NCBI GenBank assembly: GCA_002427535.1
Contig: DIRK01000058.1
Location: forward strand, 811 to 64,810
Origin: Mageeibacillus sp. UBA5438
GTDB lineage: Bacteria; Bacillota; Clostridia; Saccharofermentanales; DTU023
DNA length: 64,000 nt
Direction of reading: 5' to 3'
Part shown: positions 1,934 through 16,558 of the stretch, in pieces
Position numbering within the stretch: the first letter of the stretch is position 1
How the letters are laid out: the number at the start of each line of letters is the position of its first letter
Notes under the pieces: generated by a model
What the model was told of the DNA's origin: nothing
The model's input: the letters and a program-made list of their open reading frames with translations, nothing else
Database searches by the model: none
Program-made: the position numbers and the translations under genes

Positions 1934-3691
1934 ATGAACAAAATTGACTATGACATCCTGCAATACCTGCTCGGCCATACACAAACCACACAGCGAGACA
2001 TCGCGACAGCCTTGCGGCATTCGCTCGGCGCCATCAACAAAGCCATTCAACGCCTGAAATATAAAAACCTCATCGACGATGACAACCGCGTCCGCCCCAA
2101 GGTCAAAAAACTACAAGACTATTCCAAACCACGAAAAGCCGTCATCCTCGCCGCGGGCTTCGGCCTTCGAATGATCCCCTTCAACTTCGACACCCCCAAA
2201 GGCCTCCTGGAAGTCAAAGGCGAACTTCTGATCGAACGGCTCATCCGCCAGCTCAAAGAAAAGGATATTGACGAAATTCATATCGTCGTCGGGCACTTAA
2301 AAGAAAGCTACGAATACCTTATCGACCTCCACGGCGTCGAACTCATCGTCAACCGCGAATACGCGCGCAAAAACAACTTACACTCCCTTTTTCTCGCATC
2401 CGAACATTTAGAAAATACCTACATCCTACCCTGCGACCTCTACTTTTTAGAAAACCCCTTCTCGGCCTATGAATTTTACTCCTGGTACGCCTTAGGCGAC
2501 GAGCTTGAAGACCCGGGGAAGCTCCGCATGAACCGCTTCGGAGAACTCATCCAAACCAAACGCGACGAAAAAGGTCAAATCCTCTTAGGCCTTGCCTACC
2601 TGCACGCAAAGGAAGCCCCCTCCTTCAACGACCGCTTGCAATCCCTTGCCACAGACTCCCGTTCAGACGATGTTCCCTGGGAAGGCGTGCTAATAGAAGG
2701 AAATATCCCCTTCAAAGCCAAACGATTTCGACAAAACAGTTTCCACGCATTCAAAACCGTGGCGGACCTCCAGGCATTCGATGGCGACAGCCAACTCCCC
2801 GACAACCGATCCCTCACGCTCATCTCCGAGATCCTTGACACCTCCGTCCATGAAATCACCGGGATAAAGCCCATGAAAACAGGCATGACCAACCGCTCCT
2901 TTCTCTTCGACCACAAGGGGCAGACCTATGTCATGCGCCTCCCCGGCGAAGGCTCCGAAGCGCTCATCAACCGCCCACAAGAATACGAGGTCCACCAAGT
3001 TATAACCCGTGAAAAACTGGCCGATGAACTCGTCTACCTTGACCCCAAAACAGGCATTAAACTCGCGCAATTTCTGCCGAACGCACGTGTCTGCGACCCC
3101 CATAACGACGGCGATCTTCTCCGATGCATGACCCTCCTGAGAACATTCCACGAACAGCGCCTACAAGTCGACCACCCCTTCGACCTGTTCCAAAACATCC
3201 TTTTCTACGAACACTTAAGAGGCTCCGTCCCCTCCGTCTACCGTGACTACGAAAAGACCAAGGCCTCCGTCATGGCCCTGTTTGAATTCATCAAATCCTT
3301 TGAGCGCGAACAAGTCCTCTGTCACATCGACGCCGTACACGATAACTTCCTGTTCTACCGAGAAAATTGCGATGGCCCCGAACAAATCAAAATGATCGAC
3401 TGGGAATACGCCGGCATGCAAGACCCCCATGTCGACATCGCCATGTTCTCCATCTACGCCGGTTATAAAAAGGATGAAATCGATCACCTAATCGATCTTT
3501 ACTTCCAAAACTCATGCCCGCCCTTGATCCGGCTCAAAATCTACGCCTATGTCGCCATATGCGGCCTGTTATGGAGCAACTGGTGCGAATACAAGCGCCT
3601 GTTGGGCGTCGACTTTGGCGAATACTCCCTGAACCAGTACCGCTACGCCAAAGAGTATTCGCGGCTCGTCACAGAAAAAGGCAAAAAATGA
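1934..3691 (+). CDS. tri-domain fusion: wHTH + LicC-like CTP:phosphocholine cytidylyltransferase + LicA-like choline kinase (motifs intact)
   Basis: N-terminal HTH (TQRDIATALRHSLGAINKAIQRL). NTP-transferase loop ILAAGFGLRMIPFNFDTPKGLLEV. Kinase P-loop-like KTGMTNRSF..YVMRLPG, Brenner motif HIDAVHDN, ChoK motif MIDWEYAGMQDPHVDIAMF. Confidence 0.85.
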   Translation: MNKIDYDILQYLLGHTQTTQRDIATALRHSLGAINKAIQRLKYKNLIDDDNRVRPKVKKLQDYSKPRKAVILAAGFGLRMIPFNFDTPKGLLEVKGELLIERLIRQLKEKDIDEIHIVVGHLKESYEYLIDLHGVELIVNREYARKNNLHSLFLASEHLENTYILPCDLYFLENPFSAYEFYSWYALGDELEDPGKLRMNRFGELIQTKRDEKGQILLGLAYLHAKEAPSFNDRLQSLATDSRSDDVPWEGVLIEGNIPFKAKRFRQNSFHAFKTVADLQAFDGDSQLPDNRSLTLISEILDTSVHEITGIKPMKTGMTNRSFLFDHKGQTYVMRLPGEGSEALINRPQEYEVHQVITREKLADELVYLDPKTGIKLAQFLPNARVCDPHNDGDLLRCMTLLRTFHEQRLQVDHPFDLFQNILFYEHLRGSVPSVYRDYEKTKASVMALFEFIKSFEREQVLCHIDAVHDNFLFYRENCDGPEQIKMIDWEYAGMQDPHVDIAMFSIYAGYKKDEIDHLIDLYFQNSCPPLIRLKIYAYVAICGLLWSNWCEYKRLLGVDFGEYSLNQYRYAKEYSRLVTEKGKK

Positions 3692-4407
3692 CTGTACATC
3701 TTGCAAAACGCGCGATCGTCATGGCAGCGGGAAAAGGGACGCGACTTTTACCCTATACGGAGAACACGCCAAAGCCCCTCCTTCAGGTCAAAGGTCAGCG
3801 CATGATCGACTCCATCATCCGGGCGCTCCACTCCAGGGGCATCCATGAAATCTACATCGTCACCGGTTACTTAAAAGAACAGTTTGAAACACTGCCCCAA
3901 GAATACCCGGGCGTCACGCTCATCCATAACCCGTATTTTGAAAAAGCCAACAACATCTCCTCCCTCTTTGTCGCAAGAGCGCAGCTCGAGGATGTCATCC
4001 TCATGGACGGCGACCAGCTGATCGAAAACGAAGACGTCCTCGATCCTGTATTTGAAGGATCCTGTTACTGTGCCTTTCAACAACAAAACTTAAGGACGCG
4101 TGAGTGGATATTAGAGCTTACGGACGGGATTATCACAAAATGTCACCGGGAGGGAGGCGTCGCGGGCTGGCAGCTTCAAAGCGTCTCCTTTTGGACCAAA
4201 GAAGACGCCTTGAAACTGCAACAAGACCTCGAAGAGCTATTTATAAAAGAACGCCGCTTCGATCTATTTTGGGACGACATCGCCCTTTTCGAACGCCCCG
4301 AACGCTATCGACTGGGCATACGAAAAGTCAAAGCGGGCGACATCTTAGAAATCGACACCGTGGAAGAACTGCGCGCCGTTGACGCGCAATACGACCCTAC
4401 TAAATAA
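3688..4407 (+). CDS. licC: CTP:phosphocholine cytidylyltransferase (LicC-like), stand-alone
   Basis: ATG at 3688 overlaps the upstream stop (ATGA). The listed ORF 3514.. is an out-of-context extension. Canonical MAAGKGTRLLPYTENTPKPLLQV loop; MDGDQLI acidic motif; 239 aa. Confidence 0.85.
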   Translation: MTVHLAKRAIVMAAGKGTRLLPYTENTPKPLLQVKGQRMIDSIIRALHSRGIHEIYIVTGYLKEQFETLPQEYPGVTLIHNPYFEKANNISSLFVARAQLEDVILMDGDQLIENEDVLDPVFEGSCYCAFQQQNLRTREWILELTDGIITKCHREGGVAGWQLQSVSFWTKEDALKLQQDLEELFIKERRFDLFWDDIALFERPERYRLGIRKVKAGDILEIDTVEELRAVDAQYDPTK

Positions 4408-4422
4408 AGAAAGATAACGACC

Positions 4423-6021
4423 ATGAACCGCACCGCTTCTCACAAACGATCCCTTCGAACCCTCGTTCAAAACATCGACTGGTTGTCCACCCTCTTGCCC
4501 CTGGGCATCATACTGATGCTCACCTTCTTTCTCATCTTCTCCCCGGGACAGTCTACCCTGGTCATTGACCGCATCCGCGATTTCATCGGCAACGAACTGG
4601 GATCCTACTATATTCTATTAGGCCTGCTGTTCTTTTTCGGTTCACTCTACATCGCCTTTTCCCGATACGGTTCTATCCGTTTAGGGAAACTCGAAAAACC
4701 CGAATATTCGTCCTTCAAATGGGGCACCATGATCTTCACCTCCACCATGGCCGCCGACATCCTTTTCTATTCACTTTGCGAATGGGCGCTCTATAGCGGG
4801 GAAGACCACATTCAGGGATTGGGCAACCTCACGCTGTGGGCGCCGACCTATCCCCTCTTCCACTGGGGTCCCATCGCCTGGTCCTTCTACGTCGTGTTGG
4901 CGGTCGCCTTCGGCTTCATGTTGCATGTACGGGGCAAGAATAAACAAAAATTCTCAGAAGGCTGCCGACCCTTATTAGGTAAATACGTCGACAAGGCACC
5001 GGGGAAGATCATTGACCTGTTTTCCATCTTCGCGCTTTTGGCCGGAACCGCCACAACCTTCTCGCTCGCCACACCCCTTTTAAGCGCCGCTTTGGGACGC
5101 GTCTTAAACATCCCCGCTTCGTTAGAACTCACCCTCTTTGTCATGGTCACCACCGCAGTCGTGTACACCCTGGCCGTCTGGTTTGGCATGCGCGGCATCG
5201 CGCTTTTAGCCACAGGCTGCGTCTACTTATTCTTCCTGTTATTGGGCTACGTCCTTTTCGGAGGCGGAGAGACCGTCTACATCCTGGAGACCGGCATCGC
5301 GTCTTTAGGGAATCTCATTCAGAACTTTTTAGGCCTTGCGACCTGGACCGATCCCCTAAGGCAGACCCATTTCCCGCAAAACTGGACCATCTTCTACTGG
5401 GCCTACTGGATGGTCTGGTGCGTGGCGACCCCGTTTTTCATCGGGATTATCAGCCGGGGGCGCACGATCAAGAATGTCGTGCTGGGCGCCTATGGCTGGG
5501 GACTTGCCGGCACCTTCACCTCATTTATTATTTTAGGGAACTACGGCCTGGCCCAGGAGTTAAAACACGGCCTCGATATCTCAAGTCATATCGCCCGAAC
5601 AGGCAATATCCAGGAGGCGATCTTAAAAATCTTTGACACACTGCCCCTCCCCGCCTTCGGCCTTATTTTATTGGTCATCACGATGATCGCCTTTTACGCG
5701 ACCACCTTCGACGCGCTCACCATGGTCATCTCCTCCTACTCGTATAAGAAGCTCGAAGTCGGTAAAGAACCGCATAAACTCGTCCGCAGTTTCTGGGCGC
5801 TCTTGTTCATCCTATTGCCCATCGGGCTATTATTCGGAAGAAACTCCATGAACAGCTTGCAGTCGATCTCAATTATCGCGGCTTTCCCCATGGGCATCAT
5901 CGTGACCCTGATCGCGGCCAGTTTTTTAAAGGACGCCAATCACTATTTAAAAGGAGATTCAAAAACAGACGATCAGACACCCGTCGCAAGCGAGGGTTCC
6001 AAATCTTCCAACAAACGGTAG
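4423..6021 (+). CDS. BCCT family (betaine/carnitine/choline) transporter
   Basis: 532 aa polytopic membrane protein. BCCT-signature-like NWTIFYWAYWMVWCVATPFFIGIISRGRTIKN. Sits in the choline locus. Confidence 0.85.
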   Translation: MNRTASHKRSLRTLVQNIDWLSTLLPLGIILMLTFFLIFSPGQSTLVIDRIRDFIGNELGSYYILLGLLFFFGSLYIAFSRYGSIRLGKLEKPEYSSFKWGTMIFTSTMAADILFYSLCEWALYSGEDHIQGLGNLTLWAPTYPLFHWGPIAWSFYVVLAVAFGFMLHVRGKNKQKFSEGCRPLLGKYVDKAPGKIIDLFSIFALLAGTATTFSLATPLLSAALGRVLNIPASLELTLFVMVTTAVVYTLAVWFGMRGIALLATGCVYLFFLLLGYVLFGGGETVYILETGIASLGNLIQNFLGLATWTDPLRQTHFPQNWTIFYWAYWMVWCVATPFFIGIISRGRTIKNVVLGAYGWGLAGTFTSFIILGNYGLAQELKHGLDISSHIARTGNIQEAILKIFDTLPLPAFGLILLVITMIAFYATTFDALTMVISSYSYKKLEVGKEPHKLVRSFWALLFILLPIGLLFGRNSMNSLQSISIIAAFPMGIIVTLIAASFLKDANHYLKGDSKTDDQTPVASEGSKSSNKR

Positions 6022-7760
6022 TAGTCCTTGGCATAGCGAAACTTGTTCATGGGGAAGGCCCCCATGTTAACCCCGATCCGTTTTTTGTTCAGACTGCACA
6101 TGGTACAGAGCATCCCGCATAGCGCGATGCTCAAATACAGGCGGATCAATTCTTCTTTTGTCGCCGCGCGTCCCAGGTAATACGCAAGGGCCAATTCATG
6201 GCGCCCCCGGTCAAAGTCCGCGCGGTTACAGAACATGGCCACATCGAAAAAGGGGTCGTCCATGCCCGCAAAATCCCAATTGATCACGCGAAGGCCTCCG
6301 GTTGAAAGACGGATCACATGCTCCGCAATATATTCCCTGTGGCATAACACTTGGTCCACCGGAATTCGCTCTTTCAAGCGCAAAAGCGTCGCCATCTTCT
6401 CATGCATCTCATCGATGTCGCGAAAGGGGATGCCGCCCGCCCGGTTGACGCGCTGTTGGTAATCCAGATAACACTTTTGGGTATTGCAATGGTTGTTAAC
6501 TTGCAGTTTCCTGTCGTGGACGAGCGAAATGAGCCGCATACTGTCCAAAAGATCGCGGTCTCGATAGGGGTTCACCTTCGAGGAATGATCGTAATAATGG
6601 ATGATCCGAACACCCGTCTCAGTATCTAAACTCAACAGCTGTTCGGTCACTTCAAGGGGGCGCAAAAGATCGTAGACGGACTGAACCTCTGCATAATCGA
6701 CACAGGCATCTTCTTCTCCGTTCGGTATACGTAAAACGTATTCTTCTTCCCCGACACTGAACTTATATGCCTCGTGGCCGATTTCATCGAAGATAAGCTC
6801 CATCTCCTCGATCGCATCATGCGTTAGGCACTCGTTCATGGGGAAATGCTGAAGCACGCGTTGTTTCGCTTCTATCCGATAGCTTTTATCAAAGGCTCGC
6901 AGCTCATCGAGGGAGTTGAATGCATGGACTATTCCTGACAGCTCACGAGCTCTGATCGACAGGCCGTTGAAATGTTCCATGAGCACCTGCTCCCAATATT
7001 GACGACTCATCTCAGCTTCAAGGTAGTGCGCTTGCAATAACTTCTTGACGCTTTCGGCCGTGTTGCGATCCACATACGCGGGCCCGATAAGCGCGAGACA
7101 ATCCTGCCCGCCCAATTGGACATTTTGAATCCACCCTCTGGGGGTCACCTCCACCGCCCAAGCGGACACCGGCCCTTCGCGAAAGACACAAGCATGCCAG
7201 CTTTCCGGCTCATAATCGTGGAATATGTTGTCCTCCATATAGTGCTCCGCCATGAGCACATAGCTGTTGCCCAGATGTTCCAGCGCGTGGTACAGGCTCG
7301 AAAAATTTTCAAAGGTCGCGTAATCCGGGTTGTAGATGAGGCGGATACCGTAACGGTCAATCAGGTAGTCATAGGCTTCCAGATGGTTACCCGCCAGCAA
7401 ATAAATAGTATCGATGCCCTGCTCTTTCAACTGATCGATCTGGCGCTCAATCATGACCTCGCCTTTAACCTCGAGTAAACCCGCCGGCTGGGTGCCCATA
7501 AAGGGAAATGACGGAAATTTAAAAGTGGCGGCCAAAATAATGGCGTTTTCGACCCGATAGGTTTCAAGCCACGCGAGTCCCTTTTCGGTGACCCTTAGAT
7601 CATCCTTATTTCGTTCTAGAAACTGATTCGAAAGAGCGTCCTTGATCACCCGATTTACGGTGCCCAAAGACAGCTGACATTGTTCAGCAAGGCGCCGCTG
7701 CGTCAAAGAACCGTCTTTCAGTAATCCGCGAAGGATCGGAACCGCATTTACCGCATTCAT
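5973..7760 (-). CDS. wHTH + LicC-like + choline-kinase-like paralog with degenerate catalytic motifs (putative pseudoenzyme/regulator)
   Basis: Same architecture as 1934..3691. NTP loop is ILAATFKFPSFPFMGTQPAGLLEV (no GxGxR, no PK). Kinase P-loop replaced by DEIGHEAYKF. Brenner motif is HREYIAEH. ChoK motif is VINWDFAG (D to N). Confidence 0.8.
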   Translation of the reverse strand: MNAVNAVPILRGLLKDGSLTQRRLAEQCQLSLGTVNRVIKDALSNQFLERNKDDLRVTEKGLAWLETYRVENAIILAATFKFPSFPFMGTQPAGLLEVKGEVMIERQIDQLKEQGIDTIYLLAGNHLEAYDYLIDRYGIRLIYNPDYATFENFSSLYHALEHLGNSYVLMAEHYMEDNIFHDYEPESWHACVFREGPVSAWAVEVTPRGWIQNVQLGGQDCLALIGPAYVDRNTAESVKKLLQAHYLEAEMSRQYWEQVLMEHFNGLSIRARELSGIVHAFNSLDELRAFDKSYRIEAKQRVLQHFPMNECLTHDAIEEMELIFDEIGHEAYKFSVGEEEYVLRIPNGEEDACVDYAEVQSVYDLLRPLEVTEQLLSLDTETGVRIIHYYDHSSKVNPYRDRDLLDSMRLISLVHDRKLQVNNHCNTQKCYLDYQQRVNRAGGIPFRDIDEMHEKMATLLRLKERIPVDQVLCHREYIAEHVIRLSTGGLRVINWDFAGMDDPFFDVAMFCNRADFDRGRHELALAYYLGRAATKEELIRLYLSIALCGMLCTMCSLNKKRIGVNMGAFPMNKFRYAKDYYRLLEDLEPSLATGV

Positions 7761-7796: not shown

Positions 7797-9584
7797 TTAT
7801 TCATAAATGTCCGATAAAACCCCTCTGCCCTCCAACAAGATGTAATAATCCTTCATAAAGCGGTACATCCGCACCGGATAGTCGCCCAAATCAAGCCCGT
7901 GTCGCTTCTTATGCAGCCCCCACATGGACCACAGCATCCCGCCGAGCGCGGCGTAAAGGTAGAGTCTTACGATTTCCGTCTCATCGGGATCGCGCCCCAG
8001 ATGCAGACGAAGCGCCAGGAGGAGGCGTTCTTCATTAAAGTTTGCGTCGATTGCGAACATGGCCACATCCATCAGGGGATCCGACATACCCGAAAACTCC
8101 CAGTTCGTAATGAACAGGCCGCCCGTCTTTTTGCGGATGACATTTGCGTAAAGATAGTCGCCGTGACACAACACCGGGTCAACATCGAGATGCGCTTTTA
8201 AAAAAAGCAGTCGCTCCATCTTCTGCTTCATCTCCTCAATATCGCGGAAAGGCACACCCCCTGTCTGCTCAACCAGTGATTCATAATGAGAAAACATCTT
8301 CACAATATCGTAATGACGATCGATTCGAAGCTTTCTGTCGTGTATCTGCCGGATGAGCTGCATGCTATCCGAAAGATCACGGTCGTTCATGGGATCCACA
8401 TAGTGGGATTCGTCCGCAAAACGTGTAATGCGAATACCGCTCGACACATCGCTGTCCAACAATTCCTCCGCCACCTCAAGCGGTGCCAGGATGTCGTAGA
8501 CATGCTTCACACTCGCATGGTCGTACAAAGAAACCTCTTCTTCACCGGGAATGCGGATGACATAGGCATCCTCACGCACGTCGAAGCGATACATCTCGCT
8601 GTCCCACTCGTCCTCAAGCAGTTCAATGGATTCGATGTCCTCCACTAGAAGCGGGGCGGCGGACGGAAAATGGGCGATGATCTCTCTTTTTAGATCATCG
8701 TAATGCGATTCATCGTAATGGCGCACCTGATCAAGATGGTTGAACTCATACACATAACCTGTCTGCACATTGGCCTTCATTTGGAAATCGTTGAAATTTT
8801 CCTTCAAAATCTCCTCCCAGTAGTAATGCGTCGCCTCACCCCGGCCGTAATAGTCATTGAGCAATATTTTCAAACGCTCGGACATCTCACGGTTCAGATA
8901 AGCCGGTCCCACCACCGTCAGGCTGTCCTTCCCCCCGACCCGAATGTTTTTTATCCAACCCATCGGGGAGGTGCTGACACACCAGTCATTGGTGTCACCT
9001 TCGCAATACACACAGCAGTACCAGCTTGTGGCCTCATAAAGGTTAAAGAAATTCTTCTCGATATAGGTGTCCGCCACCAAAATATAGGTATTGTCGAGTT
9101 TGTCGGCGGCATGGTAGAGGCTCGCGTAGTTATTAATCGTCGCAAAATCGGGATTGTAAACCAGCGTGACACCGTAGCGGTCAACCAGGTAGTCATAGGC
9201 CTCCATCTGGTAGCCCACCACCAGGGTAATGTCGAAAATTCCACGATCTTGGAGCTGTTCGATCTGGCGCTCGATCATGATCTCGCCTTTGACCTTCAAA
9301 AAACCGCCGGGTATTTCATCCACCGTCCCCAGCGCGGAAGAGGTGAAGCCCGCAGCCAATACGATCGCGTTTTTCACTTTGTAGGGTTCAAGAAAAACAA
9401 GTCCCTCATCTGTCACACGCAAACCGTCGTCAAGGCGCAGCAAATAATGTTGGTCGAGCGCCCGTTGAATCACGCGGTTAATCGTACCCAGCGACATGCC
9501 GCATGTGGCCGCAAGATTTCTTTGGGTCTGTTGAGGATCCTTTAATAACTCCCTCAGAATGATGACAGTGTTTCCTTGACTCAT
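7797..9584 (-). CDS. wHTH + LicC-like + choline-kinase-like paralog with degenerate catalytic motifs
   Basis: Likely start MSQGNTV at 9584; the listed ORF start 9707 would overlap the upstream paralog. NTP loop VLAAGFTSSALGTVDEIPGGFLKV. P-loop region DEWDSEMYRF. HGDYLYAN retained, but ITNWEFSG (D to N). Confidence 0.8.
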   Translation of the reverse strand: MSQGNTVIILRELLKDPQQTQRNLAATCGMSLGTINRVIQRALDQHYLLRLDDGLRVTDEGLVFLEPYKVKNAIVLAAGFTSSALGTVDEIPGGFLKVKGEIMIERQIEQLQDRGIFDITLVVGYQMEAYDYLVDRYGVTLVYNPDFATINNYASLYHAADKLDNTYILVADTYIEKNFFNLYEATSWYCCVYCEGDTNDWCVSTSPMGWIKNIRVGGKDSLTVVGPAYLNREMSERLKILLNDYYGRGEATHYYWEEILKENFNDFQMKANVQTGYVYEFNHLDQVRHYDESHYDDLKREIIAHFPSAAPLLVEDIESIELLEDEWDSEMYRFDVREDAYVIRIPGEEEVSLYDHASVKHVYDILAPLEVAEELLDSDVSSGIRITRFADESHYVDPMNDRDLSDSMQLIRQIHDRKLRIDRHYDIVKMFSHYESLVEQTGGVPFRDIEEMKQKMERLLFLKAHLDVDPVLCHGDYLYANVIRKKTGGLFITNWEFSGMSDPLMDVAMFAIDANFNEERLLLALRLHLGRDPDETEIVRLYLYAALGGMLWSMWGLHKKRHGLDLGDYPVRMYRFMKDYYILLEGRGVLSDIYE

Positions 9585-9607
9585 ACGCACCCCGTCTACT
9601 TGTATAA

Positions 9608-11368
9608 TTATACCATGGCAAGCGGGTAAAAGTCCTTCAAATAGCGGTACATCTTTAAGGGATAGGCTCCAAGATCGAAACCTGAACGCTTTCTTTGCAG
9701 CCCCCACATGGACCAGAGAAGACCCCCCAAAGCGACATAAAGATACAGGCGGATCAACTCTTCTTGTGTGGGCGCACGGCCCAAATATAAAGCAAGCGAA
9801 AGATCCAAGCGCGCTTGGTCAAAATAGGAGTAAATGCCAAACATCGCCACATCCATAAGCGGGTCGCTCATGCCGGCAAATTCCCAATTAATAATGAACA
9901 AACCGCCCGTGGTTTTACGGACGACATGGGCGTACAGATAATCACCGTGGCAAAGCACAGGCTCGATATTGAGACGCTCCTTGATTTTTAGAAGATTTCT
10001 CATCTTGGCCTTGACATCGTCAATGTCACGAAACGGCATGCCGCCCGTGCGGTACACCTTGTTTTCATAGTAAGCCGTCATTTTCTCAATATCGTAATCG
10101 TAGTCGACCTTAAGCTTCCTGTCATGGATCAGGCGTATCAGCTGCATGCTGTCAGCAAGGTCCCGGTCATCGAAGGGATCGACAAAAGACGAACGCTCGA
10201 CATAGCGCGTGACACGGATCCCTGTCGGGATATCAAAATTTAACACCTCATCGGTCACCTCTAAGGGCGCCAATAGCTCATAGGTTTGTTTGACCTTGGC
10301 ATTGTCAATAAACGCTTCGCAGTTTTTATCCGGTACGCGAAGCACATACTCATGGCGGTCGATCACAAATTTGTAAACGTCATAGGCGACTTCATCCGCT
10401 AATGGCGTGATTTTTTCAATTTTTTCAGATGAAATCGACCACGCATCCGCGTAGTACGCCGCAATCTGATCCCTGACTTCTTTTAGGTAAGCCTTGTCAT
10501 AGGCATGCACATCTTCAATACGTGTGAATTCATAGACCTTACCCGTCTGGATATTCGCCCTTTTCGGGAAATCTTCAAAATGCTCCAAAAGGCGCGCCTG
10601 CCAATAGGCGTTTGTCATCTCCGCTTCGCTGATATTGTGCTCAAAAAAGGATCGGATATTTTCACTCATGAAACAATCGTAGTAGGCCGGCCCCACGACG
10701 GTCATGCAATTTTTGCCTCCCAAGCGCATATTTTTTATTTTGCCGCCGGGCGTGACATCGACACACCAGTCCGAGGTCTCCCCCTCACAATAGCTCACCG
10801 AATACCAGGCATAGGGTTCGTAGCGATGAAAAAGATTCTCCTCTAAGTAGCTGTCCGCCACGAGCAGGTAAGTATTATCCAGATAATCCAAGGCATACAT
10901 GAGACTTGCGAAGTTGTTGATTTTGCTGAAGTCGGGATTGTAGATCAATTTGACCCCGTAGCGGTCAACTAAATAGTCATAGCTTTCCATCCGAAAACCG
11001 ACGACAATGGCGATTTCACGAATCCCGCGCTCCAAAAGCTGTTCAATCTGCCGCTCAATCATGATCTCCCCTTTCACCTCGAGGAAACCGGGCGGCATGG
11101 TGGCAGATAGGGATAGAGCGCTTGCTGAAAAACCCGCGGCAAGAATAATGGCGTTTTTCACCTGATAGGGTACAAGCCAATCGAAACCGGCTTCGGTGAC
11201 ATAAAGTCCCTCTTCGCGGCGTTCAAGATATTTTTTTTCGATGGCACGGTTGACGACATGATTTACGGTCCCCAATGAGAGACCGCAACGATCCGCCAGC
11301 TGCCTTTGAGACAGACGGCCGTTTTCAATCAATTCACGAAGTATCGGGACCGCATTTTCAGCCTTCAT
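9608..11368 (-). CDS. wHTH + LicC-like + choline-kinase-like paralog with degenerate catalytic motifs
   Basis: Likely start MKAENAVPIL at 11368, with GAGG ~10 nt upstream. NTP loop ILAAGFSASALSLSATMPPGFLEV. P-loop region DEVAYDVYKF. HGDYLYAH (N to H). IINWEFAG (D to N). Closest to the 7797..9584 paralog. Confidence 0.8.
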   Translation of the reverse strand: MKAENAVPILRELIENGRLSQRQLADRCGLSLGTVNHVVNRAIEKKYLERREEGLYVTEAGFDWLVPYQVKNAIILAAGFSASALSLSATMPPGFLEVKGEIMIERQIEQLLERGIREIAIVVGFRMESYDYLVDRYGVKLIYNPDFSKINNFASLMYALDYLDNTYLLVADSYLEENLFHRYEPYAWYSVSYCEGETSDWCVDVTPGGKIKNMRLGGKNCMTVVGPAYYDCFMSENIRSFFEHNISEAEMTNAYWQARLLEHFEDFPKRANIQTGKVYEFTRIEDVHAYDKAYLKEVRDQIAAYYADAWSISSEKIEKITPLADEVAYDVYKFVIDRHEYVLRVPDKNCEAFIDNAKVKQTYELLAPLEVTDEVLNFDIPTGIRVTRYVERSSFVDPFDDRDLADSMQLIRLIHDRKLKVDYDYDIEKMTAYYENKVYRTGGMPFRDIDDVKAKMRNLLKIKERLNIEPVLCHGDYLYAHVVRKTTGGLFIINWEFAGMSDPLMDVAMFGIYSYFDQARLDLSLALYLGRAPTQEELIRLYLYVALGGLLWSMWGLQRKRSGFDLGAYPLKMYRYLKDFYPLAMV

Positions 11369-11390
11369 TGACTTAGCCTCACATGTGTTC

Positions 11391-11426
11391 AATATAGCAT
11401 ATGAAAGGCCGCCTTTTGAACATATG
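11391..11426 (-). promoter_or_regulatory. candidate promoter (TTCAAA-18-TGcTATATT) overlapped by an imperfect palindrome CATATGAAAGGC/GCCTTTtgaaCATATG
   Basis: On the minus strand, TATATT is the complement of 11391-11396 and TTCAAA is the complement of 11415-11420. The inverted repeat spans 11398-11426. It lies in the 150-bp divergent region between the paralog operon and the yidC-tagF-like gene. Confidence 0.3.
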
Positions 11427-11518
11427 ATCCATTCTCGGACTGGCGTGGCTGTGGTACCATCTAGGGGATCGATCGCGCCCATAAACAGCGCTCGAGACAG
11501 GGGGATTTTTGTCAGCCT

Positions 11519-13726
11519 ATGTCCGTCATTAACACCGTTTTCGGCATCCCGTTCGGATACCTCATGTACCTTCTCTACCAGCTTTCCAAAAACTACGGCA
11601 TGGCCATTCTTTTGTTTACGCTGGTCACAAAAATCCTAATGTTTCCCCTGTCCTTAATCTCACAAAAAAATGCCATCATCATGGCCAAAATACAACCGGC
11701 CTTAGACGACATCCGCCGCTTTCACGCGGGCAACAACCCCCTCATCATGGAGGAACAAAAAAAACTGTTCAAAGAAGAGGGCTACAGCACATGGAAAAGC
11801 CTTGTCCCCCTCCTTGTCCAGATCCCCATCATCTTGGGGCTCATCCATGTCATCTACCATCCGCTGCAGCATATCCTCCGCCTGGACGCGGCCACCCTCG
11901 ATTTACTGTTGAATAAAACAGCTCAACTGTTGAATACGACCCGCGAGGCTTTAGGCTCGGGCGCCGAGTTGAAAATCATCGAAATGGTCGCCGAAAACCC
12001 GGCGCTCTTCCAAGGGATGAGCGGGGTCGAAAAGATCCTTGCCTTGGACATGCAGTTCTTGGGCGCAGATCTCAGCCATATCCCAAGCTTCTCCTCACTT
12101 CTTATCTTATTTCCCATTTTGTCGGGCGCAAGCGCCCTTCTTCTCGCCGTCTGCCAGAATCGCCATTACGTATTGCAGATCACGCAGAGCGCTTTTAGAA
12201 AATGGTCAATCAGCCTTTTCCTTGTGGCCTTCTCCTTTTTCTTCGCGCTCATCCTGCCCGCAGGTGTAGGACTCTACTGGATCGCGGGAAACCTTTTGTC
12301 CGTCGCGGTGCTTTTCATATGTAATGGGATCTACGACCCCAAAAAACTTGTACCCGAAAGTTACTTCCAACCCAAAGGTAAGCGAAGCCGAAAGGAAAAA
12401 GAGGAAGAAAAAACACGCGAAAAGGCAAAGAAAGCCCGTCAAAAAGAAGACCGCAGACGTTTTATGGCAATAAAAGGCAAACAGCTTGTCTTCTACGCGG
12501 AAAACGCCAGCTATTACCGCTATTTCAAAGGATTCATCGACTACATCCTGAAGCACTCCGAACTTGTCATCCACTATGTCACAAGTGACCCCGAGGATCC
12601 TGTTTTAAGAAACGATCACCCGCGCCTTTTAGGCTACTACATCGGCCCGGTCGCCCTCATTTCCTTCATGATGCGCCTGGACGCCGACATGCTCGTCATG
12701 ACCATGCCCGACCTTGAAACCTACCATATCAAGCGCTCCATCGTACGAAAAGACGTTGAATACGTCTACCTGGACCACGGGATGACGAGTTTCCACCTGA
12801 TGCTGAAAAAGGGAGCCCTCGATCATTTCGACACCATCTTCTGCTACGGGCCCAACCACGCCGATGAAGTGCGTGAGACGGAACGCGTGTACGGATTGCC
12901 GCGGAAAAAACTCGTGAAAACGGGCTATCCGCTCCTCGACCAAATGATCGAAGGCGCCAAGGCCCTGGGGCCCATTCAAAACGACCCCAAGGTCATCATG
13001 ATCGCCCCCTCTTGGCAAAAGGACAACATCATGGACTTCTGTCTCGATGATTTAATCATGCCTCTTTTGCAAACAGGCTACCGCGTGATCCTCCGACCGC
13101 ACCCTGAATACGTGAAGCGCTTCCCCGACAAGATGGAAAGGCTCAAGACGCGCTACGAAAAGCACCTCGGCCCTTATTTTGACATTCAAACCGAATACCA
13201 AAAAACAGAATCGGTGTACAGCGCCGACCTGGTCATCACGGACTGGTCCTCCATCGCGCAGGAATTTTCCTACGCCACAAAAAAACCCTCACTTTTTATT
13301 AACACGCCCATGAAAATCATGAACCCTGAATACCAAAAAATACCGCTTGTCCCCCTCGACATTTCACTGCGCGATGAAATCGGCCGCTCCCTCGACTTGG
13401 AACAGCTGGATACCCTGCCCGCCCTGATTGAGTCCCTCATGAACGAAGGTGAAGCTTGGTGTCGTCGCATCGAACAGGTCGTCTCGGATAATATCTATGA
13501 CGTCGGCCGCGCGGCCGAAGGCGGAGGGCGCTACATCATCGAAACACTCTCGAAGAAAAAGCACGTTCAAAAGGAAAATGATGAGAAGCAAAACGCCCTT
13601 TTGGAACTCGATCACACATGGGAAGCCATGCGCAGTCAACTGAGCCAAGAAGAGGCCGTAATGCTATTAAAACAACTGGAAGATTTCCAAAGGATCACAA
13701 ACGAACAGGAGGGCGATCATGCGTAA
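11519..13726 (+). CDS. fusion protein: YidC/Oxa1-type membrane insertase domain + TagB/TagF-type CDP-alcohol phosphotransferase domain
   Basis: Residues 1-~270 resemble YidC (NYGMAILLFTLVTKILMFPLSL, MAKIQPALDDI, LPAGVGLYWIAGNLLSV; ~5 TM). Then a Lys/Glu-rich linker (KGKRSRKEKEEEKTREKAKKARQKE). The C-terminal ~430 aa carry TagF-family motifs (MIAPSWQ, ILRPHPEY, VITDWSSIAQEFSYATKKPSLFI). Confidence 0.75.
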   Translation: MSVINTVFGIPFGYLMYLLYQLSKNYGMAILLFTLVTKILMFPLSLISQKNAIIMAKIQPALDDIRRFHAGNNPLIMEEQKKLFKEEGYSTWKSLVPLLVQIPIILGLIHVIYHPLQHILRLDAATLDLLLNKTAQLLNTTREALGSGAELKIIEMVAENPALFQGMSGVEKILALDMQFLGADLSHIPSFSSLLILFPILSGASALLLAVCQNRHYVLQITQSAFRKWSISLFLVAFSFFFALILPAGVGLYWIAGNLLSVAVLFICNGIYDPKKLVPESYFQPKGKRSRKEKEEEKTREKAKKARQKEDRRRFMAIKGKQLVFYAENASYYRYFKGFIDYILKHSELVIHYVTSDPEDPVLRNDHPRLLGYYIGPVALISFMMRLDADMLVMTMPDLETYHIKRSIVRKDVEYVYLDHGMTSFHLMLKKGALDHFDTIFCYGPNHADEVRETERVYGLPRKKLVKTGYPLLDQMIEGAKALGPIQNDPKVIMIAPSWQKDNIMDFCLDDLIMPLLQTGYRVILRPHPEYVKRFPDKMERLKTRYEKHLGPYFDIQTEYQKTESVYSADLVITDWSSIAQEFSYATKKPSLFINTPMKIMNPEYQKIPLVPLDISLRDEIGRSLDLEQLDTLPALIESLMNEGEAWCRRIEQVVSDNIYDVGRAAEGGGRYIIETLSKKKHVQKENDEKQNALLELDHTWEAMRSQLSQEEAVMLLKQLEDFQRITNEQEGDHA

Positions 13727-15653
13727 AAAGATGTCCGCTTTCCTCCTTTTCACAGGCTACTTCCTTATCCGGACGAAGCCCGTACACGCCTACATTGATC
13801 CCGCGACGACGACCTATCTCATCCAAATTTTGTCGGCGCTTGTCATCACATTGGGCGTGACCGTCGGCGTGTTTTTCGGCCGCATCCGACAGTTCTTTTT
13901 AAACTTCCGCGTCCGCATGACAGAACTTCGCATCCGCGTGTTCGAGCAAAAAAGAGAGGACAAGCAACCGCAAAAAATTGAAAAACAAGAAATCTCGTTG
14001 CCCTTCATAAAACGCTTCCTCCTCGCCTTACCAACCTCCGTCGCCCTCTTTTTCACCCTCGTAATCTTTGGCGTGTATGAGCTTTACATGAACAATCAAG
14101 AAGCCTTTATGTTCCCCCTCACATCCGTTCTCTTGTCGCTCATTCTCATCGCTCTTTTTGGAACGCTTTTATTGGCCCTCCTGATTGCTGTGTTTCGACA
14201 CCATACCTTTTCGACGGTTCTGTCGATTGCCTTTGGACTTCTATTGGCCTTCAACCTTGAGGGCAATCTGTTGAACCTTTCTTTGGGCGAACTGACAGGC
14301 GACAGCATCCCTTGGGAACTGTACCGGACAGAGGCGATCGTTAACCTGTTCGTCTGGATCGTACTCATCGGCCTTGTGGTTGTGATCGGCCACTACTTAA
14401 AAAACTTTTGGAAAGTCCTTGTAAGACTCGCCCCCGCCGTCATCCTTATGGCACAGATCATCGCCATGATCGTGATCTCCGCCACCGCGGCGCCCTCCAC
14501 ATTAGAGGACAACCTGTATTTGTCACGCCAGGGTATTTATGAAGTCGGCAAAAAGGAGAACATCGTCGTCATTGTGCTGGATCGTCTCGACAACTGGTTC
14601 ATCAATGACGTGCTGAAAGAAGAACCCGATTTTTTCGACCGTATGGACGGTTTCACGCGCTTCACGAACAACATCTCGCTTTACAGCCAAACCTTCCCCT
14701 CCGTGGCCAATATGCTGACCGGTGAACGCTACGACTTTAACGACTACTGGGCCGATTATTTGGAAAATGCTTGGAAAACAGGTGATTTCATCCCCCGATT
14801 AAAAGGGGCGGGTTACGAAAACCGCTTCTATATGGAGCGTAGCTACGCCTACCGGGACGCCCAAGATCTTCTAGGCCTTGCGGATAACATCGTCGAAGGA
14901 AAAATCAGCATCGACCGCAAGGAGGCCGTCGGGCAATTTATGGGACTCTCCTCCTACCGCTATGTCCCCTTGGCCTTAAAACCCTTCTTTTGGACCTCCA
15001 CTGAGGCATTCGGTAAGATCATCGATGTCAGTTTAGAAACAGCCCCCTATATCACAGATGACCTCGCCTTCTTCAAAGGTTTAAAAGAAGAGCGGTTGAA
15101 AATTGGGGAGGCCGAGAAGAATTTCCTGTTCATTCATTTGAATGGCCCCCATCCTCCCTACAATTTAGATGAATACGGAAACGAAGCGGAGCCCGGGCAG
15201 TCCTCCTATAAAATTCAGACGAAGGGGAGCTTTCGCATTGTCTTTGAATATTTGGACCAATTAAAGGCTCTCGGACTCTACGAGGACGCGACCATCATTG
15301 TGACAGGCGACCACGGGGCGCGTTTATCTGACACACAGCCTTTGAGCTCCGCCATTGTGACAGGCCTGTTCGTCAAACCGAAAGGCGCGATCGGCGAACC
15401 CATTAAGATCAACCGCGCGCCCTTGACCTCGGACAATCTGCGGGCCACCGTCATCGAAGCGGCGGGCATCGATGCCCCCCAGTACGGCCAGAGCTATTTT
15501 GAGGTGTCGCCCGATGAATTCGCCGTCCGCTTCCTCTTCCACCGCCTGTACGGTTCAGAGGACCAGCCGGCACGAGTCGAGGTATACCAGGTGCTGGGAG
15601 ACGCAAACCAGTTCAACAACTGGATTCTTGTGGAAGAGGAGATTATCCGGTAA
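13719..15653 (+). CDS. polytopic membrane protein with extracytoplasmic LtaS/sulfatase (alkaline-phosphatase superfamily) domain
   Basis: Start overlaps the upstream stop by 8 nt. Multi-TM N-terminal half. C-terminal motifs IVVIVLDRLDNWF, YSQTFPSVANMLTG (candidate Thr nucleophile), LNGPHPPY, IIVTGDHGARL. Confidence 0.7.
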   Translation: MRKKMSAFLLFTGYFLIRTKPVHAYIDPATTTYLIQILSALVITLGVTVGVFFGRIRQFFLNFRVRMTELRIRVFEQKREDKQPQKIEKQEISLPFIKRFLLALPTSVALFFTLVIFGVYELYMNNQEAFMFPLTSVLLSLILIALFGTLLLALLIAVFRHHTFSTVLSIAFGLLLAFNLEGNLLNLSLGELTGDSIPWELYRTEAIVNLFVWIVLIGLVVVIGHYLKNFWKVLVRLAPAVILMAQIIAMIVISATAAPSTLEDNLYLSRQGIYEVGKKENIVVIVLDRLDNWFINDVLKEEPDFFDRMDGFTRFTNNISLYSQTFPSVANMLTGERYDFNDYWADYLENAWKTGDFIPRLKGAGYENRFYMERSYAYRDAQDLLGLADNIVEGKISIDRKEAVGQFMGLSSYRYVPLALKPFFWTSTEAFGKIIDVSLETAPYITDDLAFFKGLKEERLKIGEAEKNFLFIHLNGPHPPYNLDEYGNEAEPGQSSYKIQTKGSFRIVFEYLDQLKALGLYEDATIIVTGDHGARLSDTQPLSSAIVTGLFVKPKGAIGEPIKINRAPLTSDNLRATVIEAAGIDAPQYGQSYFEVSPDEFAVRFLFHRLYGSEDQPARVEVYQVLGDANQFNNWILVEEEIIR

Positions 15654-15658
15654 AACCT

Positions 15659-16558
15659 TTAGTGACCCGGCGTTCTGAAACGATCGAAGAAATCCGAAGA
15701 TAAAAGCGGATTGGCGGATACGCCTGAAACAAGTTCATTGTAACGCTTCGTAATGGCCTCACCGAGCGGCAGGTCGGGGAAGATCGCGTAGCGCAGATAA
15801 AAATCGAAAAGATCCACACCCGAATCATAAATTTCGCCCGCGATATCGGAGATAAAATGACGGCTGTTCGGAAGCGCGATATCCGAAATAAGCGGCACGC
15901 GGCTCCAGATCACACGCCATGAACCGATGGAAATCACCGGCAACGGGATGGGCCGGCGGTTTTTTTGCCGCTCACTGTCGCGGACGAAGCGCATGTCCTC
16001 CAAGATTACGCATAAATCAGACAGTGCTTCCGCGACCGACGAGCGCGGATAGCTTTGCTGCAATGTCAACCACCCGCATAAATACAGATAGTGGCAGGCA
16101 CGCAGACGGATGAGATTTTGGATTTGCGCCAGTTCATCGCGGCGCTTCAGCGCCGCAAGCGTGGGAAACAACATGCACAGATCGCGATAACTCAAGCTGT
16201 CCGCAAAATGCTCTAACTGCGCCCTGGTCTTCACCTGCTTTAGTTGAGTGGAAAGCCAGGTCGCGTGAGAGGGCGTATGTTCGCAGAGTGTTTCCGTCGG
16301 CAGAGGGTGCTTTTCACGGCATCCCTCGAGCGCTTCTTCTAAAGTCTTGTAAATAAGCGGGACGGGCCTTGCTAACCTCGGTCGAGGAACCGGAGAGCTA
16401 ACGCGTACGGGCGGCGCTTCAATCTCTAGCGGCCGGCGCCTCGTCGAAGGCTGACGCCTTTTGGGCGCGATTGAATTCTCCGCTTCCGGCAACCGGAGGG
16501 TCACCGGCCGAATAGCGCGGTTTTTTTCCTCATCGTCTTTTAACAGACGATCATCCAT
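15659..16558 (-). CDS. hypothetical protein with Pro/Arg-rich N-terminus
   Basis: 299 aa with no motif I recognise. Its ATG is embedded in the upstream gene's terminal codons (cATGGATGA), indicating translational coupling. Confidence 0.5.
   Translation of the reverse strand: MDDRLLKDDEEKNRAIRPVTLRLPEAENSIAPKRRQPSTRRRPLEIEAPPVRVSSPVPRPRLARPVPLIYKTLEEALEGCREKHPLPTETLCEHTPSHATWLSTQLKQVKTRAQLEHFADSLSYRDLCMLFPTLAALKRRDELAQIQNLIRLRACHYLYLCGWLTLQQSYPRSSVAEALSDLCVILEDMRFVRDSERQKNRRPIPLPVISIGSWRVIWSRVPLISDIALPNSRHFISDIAGEIYDSGVDLFDFYLRYAIFPDLPLGEAITKRYNELVSGVSANPLLSSDFFDRFRTPGH

Follow-up and report, generated by a model that had tools for sequence, protein, structure and literature searches.

A YidC core fused to a TagF-like transferase: a widespread, mis-named protein family and a candidate module for decorating the bacterial envelope with phosphocholine

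We describe a gene that joins a YidC/Oxa1 insertase core to a TagF-like phospho-transferase domain in a single polypeptide (11519..13726, forward strand). It lies in a 64,000-nt stretch of contig DIRK01000058.1 from Mageeibacillus sp. UBA5438, which we call the window and to which all gene coordinates refer. The fusion belongs to a large, uncharacterized protein family that is already in the databases but is mis-named 'YidC'; what is new here is a conserved partner enzyme, a hairpin module, natural triple fusions and interchangeable choline and phosphonate donor pathways. Our working model is that these parts form a three-part envelope-decoration machine in which the fusion would be the central subunit, the YidC core would serve as a lipid-handling or conducting module and the hairpin would aid assembly. 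We favor this model tentatively, giving it somewhat less than an even chance. Judging from the sequences of the genes involved, the machine probably puts phosphocholine on the cell envelope.

The open reading frame (ORF) encodes 735 aa plus a stop codon, has an upstream Shine-Dalgarno sequence (AGGGGGA) and is present exactly as given in an earlier, model-generated note on this DNA. The motifs quoted there are all found as well: LVTKILMFPL at residues 35-44, APSWQ at 496-500, RPHPEY at 526-531 and TDWSS...KKPSLFI at 574-593. The YidC/Oxa1 core (aa 1-272; 11519..12334) consists of an EH1-like N-terminal helix, the first transmembrane segment (TM1, aa 26-48), a cytoplasmic C1 hairpin (aa 49-93), TM2 and TM3-TM5, and hydropathy finds the five expected hydrophobic segments at 29-47, 94-112, 194-212, 234-252 and 250-268. 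TM2 and TM3 are separated by a clade-specific, net-acidic extracytoplasmic insertion of 75 aa (aa 116-190; 11864..12088). A Lys/Arg/Glu-rich linker (aa 273-318; 12335..12472) leads from the core to the TagF-like GT-B phospho-transferase domain (aa 319-660; 12473..13498), which is supported by the PF04464 match, Foldseek and invariant columns, and the protein ends in a variable helical tail (aa 661-735; 13499..13723). All of these segments are on the forward strand.

An AlphaFold2 (AF2) model built from the family alignment (mean pLDDT 86, pTM 0.66) shows the YidC helices at 26-68, 73-87, 91-113, 194-216, 225-245 and 248-271, with pLDDT mostly above 85 and with the C1 hairpin that the earlier note had recognized. 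In the same model the loop insertion forms short helices, the basic linker carries a helix at 291-317, an alpha/beta two-lobe domain occupies 321-660 and long helices run from 665 to 729 in the tail. By sequence, the C1 loop is basic, the TM2-TM3 loop is net-acidic and the segment after TM5 is strongly basic. Because of this positive-inside pattern and the homology to solved YidCs, the fused transferase would face the cytoplasm, which agrees with the C-in topology proposed before.

Profile searches identify the N-terminal half as a complete short YidC core. PF02096 (60KD_IMP) matches aa 26-268 with 101 bits against a cut-off of 35 and covers profile positions 1-161 of 163; that the match takes up 243 residues for a 163-position profile reflects the loop insertion. 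NCBIfam TIGR03592 (yidC_oxa1_cterm) scores 95.8 bits against a cut-off of 84.3, and a profile made from 24 family members matches the solved YidCs of E. coli, T. maritima and B. halodurans (chains 5MG3, 3WVF, 5Y83 and 3WO6) with E-values of 1e-16 to 1e-19. The possibility that the N-terminal region is not YidC-like is thus set aside. The positively charged groove residue is Lys38 (codon 11630..11632), which stands at the site of the conserved YidC groove Arg and aligns to R366 of E. coli YidC in the family-profile alignments. It is invariant in our alignment A1, and the groove site is Lys in 35 and Arg in 3 of 38 representatives. With YidC, SpoIIIJ and Oxa1, including the short clostridial forms, the fusion has in common the five-TM core, the C1 hairpin, the EH1-like N-terminal helix, the basic segment after TM5, the positive charge in TM1 and the QIP and GLYW..N motifs. 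It differs from them in having Lys rather than Arg in the groove, in the 75-aa extracytoplasmic insertion and in carrying an enzyme where the ribosome-binding tail would end.

The C-terminal half proved to be the full TagF-type domain that had been described in the earlier note. PF04464 (Glyphos_transf) matches aa 453-593 with 49.6 bits against a cut-off of 22.1, covering profile positions 148-291 of 367, and in relatives the match spans positions 10-293. When the PDB was searched by fold with Foldseek, the first two ranks were TagF (3L7L and 3L7K; E 4.5e-9, target-normalized TM-score 0.56), followed by the TagF-like capsule polymerases 8QOY and 8A0C. TagF was reached by the fold search only; sequence searches of the PDB, with the family profile or with the transferase domain alone, did not find it. 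The score against the TarF equivalog NF041712 was 23 bits, where its cut-off is 550. The invariant motifs of the domain are D419-H420-G in the N-lobe, PSWQ (497-500), RPHP (526-529) and TDWS (574-577), of which DHG, RPHP and TDWS sit where the His pair of TagF (H444 and H584) and its TDYSS motif would be expected, which makes them putative counterparts.

The likeness to TagB, TarF and the S. epidermidis TagF (3L7I-3L7L) consists of the GT-B two-lobe fold, a PF04464 match above cut-off, a cytoplasmic location, a predicted donor of the same kind, namely a phospho-alcohol activated with cytidine monophosphate (CMP), and comparable motifs, with DHG probably corresponding to WHG, PSWQ to PTW, RPHP to xHP and TDWSS to TDYSS. 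In contrast, the fusion is only 16% identical to TagF, its anchor is a YidC core where theirs are amphipathic helices, and its neighboring genes indicate cytidine diphosphate (CDP)-choline or CMP-phosphonates rather than CDP-glycerol as donor. Since choline has a single hydroxyl, the choline form would be a monotransferase and not a polymerase.

The fusion is real and widespread. Eighty fusion loci were fetched from the 554 that we found among 185,579 species-representative genomes (one genome per species), and it is to these 80 that the neighborhood counts below refer. Both halves lie in a single stop-to-stop ORF in 79 of them, the sole split being at L056, so no stop or frameshift generally divides two ordinary genes. 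The best 120 homologue clusters are 657-885 aa long and 49-99% identical to the query over at least 89% of its length, and both Pfam domains are recorded in all but two of them. The intact loci and the top clusters together rule out a frameshift or assembly artefact. The best-matching locus (L008, 99% identity) comes from a metagenome-assembled genome (MAG), 'Clostridia bacterium AnMBR.bin345'. Carriers within the Clostridia include Saccharofermentanales/Fastidiosipila-like bacteria, Peptococcaceae and Oscillospiraceae, the last represented by human-gut MAGs and the cultured Bittarella massiliensis; other carriers are Coriobacteriales (Coriobacteriia), Bifidobacteriaceae and Propionibacteriaceae. 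Some loci of the Oscillospiraceae type occur in bins labelled as Gram-negative (L063 and L070, Barnesiella/Bacteroidaceae bins; L072, a Caulobacteraceae MAG; L084, a Treponema MAG), which could reflect mis-binning or horizontal transfer.

An exhaustive search of 1.84 billion representatives returned 651 clusters at E<=1e-30, which fall into four groups: the classic fusions, fusions of about 625 aa that are without the 75-aa TM2-TM3 insertion, proteins of 1170-1545 aa, and a large tier of stand-alone proteins of about 380 aa that match the transferase half only, at 31-40% identity. In the source databases the fusions are named merely 'membrane protein insertase YidC'. JGI also gives the name 'YidC/Oxa1 family membrane protein insertase' to stand-alone TagF-like proteins of 375-398 aa (P0186, P0285, P0294, P0378 and P0387), and this naming of transferases that contain no YidC is apparently annotation transfer from the fusions. 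The earlier note knew of no characterized YidC fused to a teichoic-acid-type enzyme, and full-text searching of the literature likewise found no paper describing a YidC-glycerophosphotransferase protein; a 2025 review of YidC does not mention fused forms.

Could the YidC half simply be a membrane anchor inherited by chance, or the family an ordinary insertase with an extra enzyme domain? Membrane attachment of a TagF-type enzyme could be achieved with any TM segment, amphipathic helices serve this end in other TagF enzymes, and the NCBI and JGI pipelines name the proteins simply YidC. Nevertheless, we regard both ideas as quite improbable, the least likely of the readings considered. Across Clostridia and Actinobacteria the YidC core has a mean pairwise identity of 0.56, with 46 of its 272 positions invariant; the two transferase lobes reach 0.67 and 0.56, the loop insertion 0.42, the linker 0.37 and the C-terminal tail 0.24. 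The invariant polar residues of the YidC half at groove positions include T34, T37, K38, Q101, Q213, N214, Y253, W254 and N258. A passive anchor is hard to reconcile with a YidC half that is as conserved as the enzyme half and whose polar groove positions are invariant; this pattern of conservation argues that the YidC half has been selected as a YidC.

As to the second idea, a housekeeping yidC is near-universal, single-copy and usually set in an rpmH-rnpA-yidC-jag arrangement, whereas the fusion is sporadic, occurs in two to three copies in a few MAGs and has other neighbors, with no RNase P (rnpA) or Jag domains seen in the fusion neighborhoods that were read. The duplicated fusion genes of one locus (L091, described below) share one YidC half, which also does not fit a housekeeping role. 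The sporadic distribution, the multiple copies and the missing rnpA and jag neighbors argue that the fusion is an accessory paralogue. A second yidC was found neither in the 64-kb window nor within 10 kb in 87 loci, a search that covered neighborhoods rather than whole genomes.

The fusion has a conserved partner. Directly downstream lies a gene (13719..15653, forward strand) for a polytopic protein of 644 aa which the earlier note had called LtaS-like and which is a Sulfatase-family (LtaS/EptA-type) protein by PF00884 (50.4 bits against a cut-off of 25, aa 281-584), with its hydrophobic segments before aa 260. Its ATG overlaps the stop codon of the fusion gene and is preceded by a GGAGGG Shine-Dalgarno sequence; to judge from this arrangement, the partner is translationally coupled to the fusion. 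A strong homologue of the partner adjoins the fusion on the same strand at 49 of the 80 loci and on the opposite strand at two. When diverged paralogues, opposite-strand neighbors and one triple fusion are included, at least 66 of the 80 have an adjoining Sulfatase-family gene, and most of the loci without one end at contig ends. At 14 loci of a gut Oscillospiraceae clade the fusion is immediately preceded by one or two Sulfatase-family paralogues of diverged sequence. At L079 (6589-9958) and 13 other gut-clade loci there are two tandem Sulfatase-family membrane paralogues, 49% identical, the second of which falls under the Pfam Sulfatase threshold yet is clearly homologous to the first.

The association goes further in long members of the family. 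All seven of the long representatives tested are triple fusions with Sulfatase, YidC and Glyphos_transf domains, in the order YidC-TagF-Sulfatase in P0130, P0147 and P0153 and in the order Sulfatase-YidC-TagF in P0144, P0150, P0158 and P0163, the last with DUF7024 between Sulfatase and YidC. These proteins are 1185-1545 aa long, and L040 (10001-14446) holds another. Because independent fusions have arisen in both orders, they are strong Rosetta-stone evidence for one functional unit, and together with the conserved adjacency they strongly support the suggestion of the earlier note that the YidC-TagF protein is linked to the LtaS-like protein.

What the partner does can be proposed from its conserved residues. 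In 50 sequences D288, D291, T325, P327, H473, H478, D531 and H532 are at least 95% conserved, T325 stands in the context QTFPSVA, and the formylglycine motif of sulfatases (C/S-x-P-x-R) is absent. With a Thr nucleophile, metal ligands and no CxPxR motif, the partner is predicted to be an LtaS/EptA-type phospho-transferase and not a sulfatase; T325 looks like the nucleophile and the Asp and His residues look like metal ligands, roles that we have assigned by analogy. The partner is not close to a characterized member in the searches made, its best PDB match being LtaS at E 0.075, and it has no NCBIfam match. LtaS draws on phosphatidylglycerol and EptA on phosphatidylethanolamine as the membrane phospholipid that donates the head group. 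With LtaS, EptA, GacH, OpgB and BcsG the partner has in common a polytopic N-terminal part followed by an extracytoplasmic Sulfatase-fold domain with a Thr nucleophile and Asp/His ligands. It differs in its very weak similarity to solved LtaS, in an extra N-terminal hairpin module and in being coupled, sometimes fused, to a cytoplasmic CMP-donor transferase, as no characterized member is.

The genes on the other side of the fusion point to its donor. Divergent from it lies a gene (9608..11482, reverse strand) for a protein in which a winged helix-turn-helix (wHTH) domain is joined to a LicC-like cytidylyltransferase and a LicA-like choline kinase (HTH_24, NTP_transf_3, APH/Choline_kinase). This protein matches pneumococcal LicC (1JYK) at E 3e-30 and the choline kinase LicA (4R77) at E 5e-20. 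Three paralogues of it follow, at 7797..9707 and 5973..7760 on the reverse strand and at 1934..3691 on the forward strand (Choline_kinase 55.5 bits, NTP_transf_3 55.8 bits), and among them are forward-strand genes for a betaine/carnitine/choline (BCCT) transporter (4423..6021; PF02028, 401 bits) and for an extra LicC-like nucleotidyltransferase (3514..4407; NTP_transf_3, NTP_transferase). The four wHTH-bearing copies may serve several head-group substrates or autoregulation. Within 6 kb of the fusion, LicC/LicA homologues occur at 45 of the 80 loci and BCCT at eight, and the gut-clade operon at L079 has the order Sulfatase, Sulfatase, YidC-TagF, hairpin, LicA, LicC, BCCT. The scanned ORFs showed no tagD/tarD-like gene, and the window contains no phosphoenolpyruvate (PEP) mutase genes. 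As the Lic and BCCT neighbors suggest, CDP-choline is a more probable local donor than CDP-glycerol. The earlier proposal that the transferase lies in the cytoplasm, where CDP-activated donors are available, therefore stands as to its location and is refined as to the donor.

This arrangement has a parallel in the Lic pathway (LicB/LicA/LicC/LicD) of S. pneumoniae and H. influenzae, and in licABC of Clostridium immunis, where a choline transporter, a kinase and a CTP:phosphocholine cytidylyltransferase likewise occur together. In the window a BCCT protein takes the place of LicB as transporter, the LicC-LicA proteins are present in four copies, each with a wHTH domain, and the TagF-like domain stands where the CDP-choline-using enzyme would be expected: a Pfam scan found no LicD-family transferase among 16 window ORFs (110-22940) or the ORFs of the L079 operon. 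Gut Clostridia are known to make a phosphocholine-modified polysaccharide (bioRxiv 10.1101/2024.06.12.598703).

Relatives of the transferase domain are found with a second kind of donor genes. At L088 (Natronincola peptidivorans), L089, L090 and L091, and also at L072, L077 and L087, the companions are a Fom1-like fusion of cytidylyltransferase and PEP mutase, phosphonopyruvate decarboxylase (Ppd), an iron-type alcohol dehydrogenase (Fe-ADH) and a PntC-aminotransferase-like fusion, which suggests, from gene content, that the transferases so far missing for CMP-activated phosphonates may belong to this subfamily. Three of the 80 fusion loci have PEP mutase, Ppd and Fe-ADH together. 'PntC-AEPT' matches at 37 loci were considered as phosphonate genes and rejected; they score 33-66 bits only, and we read them as cross-matches of LicC-type nucleotidyltransferases. 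In the known Pnt pathways (PntC and Fom1-type; PMC6697681, PMC8942020), LicD-like phosphotransferases, glycosyltransferases and 'sulfatases' are described in such neighborhoods, and no TagF-like or YidC-fused enzyme is mentioned; our relatives adjoin PEP mutase, Ppd, Fe-ADH and PntC-AEPT-like genes, which would make CMP-activated phosphonates. The common denominator of the donor genes, as far as homology tells, is a CMP-activated small phospho- or phosphono-alcohol.

The association with YidC can persist without fusion: L090 has a TagF-like transferase, a 74-aa hairpin and a separate 221-aa YidC, the latter with Asn rather than Lys or Arg at the groove position. L091 (4822-9875; GCA_948994625.1, CARIJZ010000005.1) holds two divergent YidC-TagF genes. 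There, an inverted repeat of 874 nt, 100% identical between its arms (5901-6774 and 7935-8808), takes in the entire YidC half and 66 nt upstream of it, and the arms flank a 1160-nt segment with a tyrosine-recombinase gene. The arrangement resembles an invertible switch by which either of two transferase halves would be set behind a single YidC half, though it could also be an artefact of assembly.

The TagF-like domain might instead act as a functional analogue of LicD, decorating an undecaprenyl-(pyro)phosphate-linked glycan or teichoic-acid precursor directly on the cytoplasmic side of the membrane, with export left to ordinary flippases encoded elsewhere. Characterized TagB, TagF and TarF members act on lipid-linked precursors inside the cell, and the unfused relative at L088 sits in what looks like a classical glycopolymer cluster of GT2, Bac_transf, epimerase and LCP genes. 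Furthermore, the Pfam scan of ORFs in the window and at L079 showed no LicD, which means that the CDP-choline must be consumed by another enzyme. We think this explanation rather unlikely, and give no better chance to its corollary that the partner has a task of its own (transfer or trimming of a polymer, or a second modification) while the YidC half mainly positions the enzyme at sites of membrane biogenesis. It leaves unexplained both the repeated fusions to Sulfatase in either order and the invariant polar positions of YidC, and no glycosyltransferase or flippase genes adjoin the module in the window and at most loci.

The third part of the module is a small hairpin resembling procoat, which makes up the first ~70 residues of the partner (13719..13928, forward strand). 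It reads MRKK, a hydrophobic helix, V-H-A, YIDPATTTYLIQ, a TM helix and a basic tail, and an alignment of 62 copies gives the general pattern A-x-A, 'YIDPATT(S/T)YIIQ' and a basic amphipathic tail, with YIDPATT near-invariant and variants of the form 'YIDPATT' or 'YLDPGT'. In clades whose Sulfatase protein has no hairpin, a free-standing hairpin ORF of about 100 aa begins 0-20 nt after the fusion gene; such ORFs, in the range of ~70-106 aa, are found directly downstream of the fusion at L063, L069-L081 and L085. Hairpin ORFs of 69-74 aa also adjoin the unfused transferases of L088 (7648-7857) and L090 (3820-4044). The module has no Pfam family, and a 99-aa hairpin query found only three homologues and was uninformative. 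A pattern search did not find the motif in 15 long representatives of triple-fusion length, so the hairpin is not always part of the Sulfatase chain, and the triple fusion of L040 does have it.

The layout of the hairpin, which we take to be that of YidC-only substrates such as M13 procoat, brings up the possibility that the YidC half works solely as insertase or lasting clamp of the hairpin and thereby of the LtaS-type partner, and that other proteins flip the lipid if needed. On this view the fused YidC would first insert the hairpin and afterwards keep hold of it, so bringing the cytoplasmic transferase and the ecto-enzyme together in a single complex. The hairpin has what such a substrate should have, namely a signal-like helix, A-x-A, a short outside turn with an invariant Asp, a TM helix and a basic tail. 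The positive charge of the groove is conserved, and according to a 2014 study by Kumazaki and co-workers the groove Arg of YidC reportedly pairs with acidic residues of substrates. The hairpin is consistently encoded beside the fusion, whether free or joined to the partner, and the partner gene is translationally coupled. We still consider a clamp unlikely, though with a real chance of being right. At L088 a hairpin accompanies an unfused transferase with no YidC nearby, so a housekeeping YidC can presumably insert it and a fused YidC is not what its conserved Asp requires; the stand-alone YidC of L090 has Asn at the groove site; the hairpin motif was not found by pattern in the 15 long representatives; and a pure insertase needs no covalent tie to a cytoplasmic enzyme.

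We therefore return to the model of a decoration machine with YidC as its lipid-handling part, which would work as follows. BCCT would import choline, LicA-like domains would phosphorylate it and LicC-like domains would activate it to CDP-choline. The TagF-like domain, tethered by the basic linker directly below the YidC core, would then move the phospho-head-group from the CMP-activated donor to the hydroxyl of a membrane lipid, freeing CMP. More speculatively, the YidC groove (Lys38, Gln101 and Tyr253/Trp254/Asn258) might present the acceptor lipid to the active site, after which the product's charged head group might slide through the groove to the outer leaflet by scramblase-type conduction. 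The procoat-like hairpin would probably dock at the groove and tie in the partner, which as an LtaS/EptA-type enzyme would take the head group from the lipid and give it to a wall, lipoteichoic-acid or glycan acceptor. Genes activating phosphonates (hydroxyethylphosphonate or aminoethylphosphonate, HEP/AEP) take the place of the Lic genes beside this chassis in related clades.

There is precedent for a YidC acting on lipids: in proteoliposomes E. coli YidC is a scramblase of glycerophospholipids, as is B. subtilis MisCB in simulations (PMC11047089). If loading is cytoplasmic and the ecto-enzyme takes the head group from an outer-leaflet lipid, then the head group must cross the membrane. The YidC half would be the conduit because it is the sole conserved non-enzymatic polytopic element of the module, the conserved module encodes no other candidate flippase and E. 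coli YidC is able to scramble. In its full form this would mean that an enzyme has taken over an Oxa1-superfamily fold as its lipid-conducting subunit, with loading, passage through the groove and an LtaS-type hand-over to the wall. We hold this stronger claim to be doubtful at present, and the further idea that in some organisms the whole scheme runs within one polypeptide of 1200-1500 aa deserves the same reserve. The predicted logic is shared with the GtrA/GtrB/GtrV and ArnC/ArnE-F/ArnT systems, in which a lipid carrier is loaded inside, flipped by a small membrane module and used for transfer outside. Unlike in those systems, the group transferred here would be a phospho-alcohol and not a glycosyl residue, the flipper would have the YidC fold, and everything would be contained in one or two polypeptides.

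Several points weigh against the model: (i) the lipid-linked intermediate and its scrambling by the fused YidC are things that we infer and not direct observations; (ii) ordinary phospholipids are scrambled in bacterial membranes in any case, and there may thus be no need for a dedicated conduit; (iii) with a pTM of 0.66, the AF2 model leaves the geometry between groove and active site to inference; (iv) the equation of H420 and H528 with the catalytic His pair of TagF is putative; (v) the unfused transferases of L088 and L089 have no YidC gene nearby (L088 does have the hairpin), so a dedicated YidC is not indispensable for the chemistry; (vi) at L088 it is simpler to suppose that an undecaprenyl-linked glycan is decorated directly in the cytoplasm; (vii) the four LicC-LicA paralogues of the window suggest more than one head group, which makes choline less than certain; and (viii) a neighboring diacylglycerol kinase gene, considered as support for a diacylglycerol cycle, was seen in one Coriobacteriales MAG (one of the 80 loci) and does not generalize.

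A few other features were seen in the flanks of the operon. Two possible gene fragments lie near the start of the window, one (110-721) with the last ~48 positions of the Fic profile and a wHTH domain, the other (1317-1877) with the C-terminal domain of a beta-ketoacyl synthase alone. Convergent with the operon, the reverse strand of 15659-18083 encodes two proteins that have no convincing family: one of 299 aa has no Pfam match, and one of 510 aa combines TM segments at its N-terminus with a long coiled-coil-like region.

YidC is generally treated as a dedicated protein insertase. Its lipid scrambling has so far been shown in vitro and in simulations (PMC11047089), and a natural family in which a conserved YidC is welded to a head-group transferase offers a direct test of whether this activity is used biologically. 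The fusion would be more than a variation on known kinds if the YidC fold does conduct a lipid-linked intermediate; it would then be the first natural system with YidC-type scramblase activity as a selected function. The survey also exposes a systematic mis-annotation, the fusions and some unfused transferases alike being called only 'YidC'. For the Clostridia, Coriobacteriia and other anaerobes in which licA/licC or PEP-mutase genes adjoin it, the family is a candidate for the missing CDP-choline or CMP-phosphonate transferase, and these carriers include human-gut Oscillospiraceae. Phosphocholine on the polysaccharide of a commensal has been reported to have immunometabolic effects (bioRxiv 10.1101/2024.06.12.598703), and if the YidC half is indeed a conduit, the module would constitute a new route of phosphocholine and phosphonate decoration in gut and digester anaerobes.

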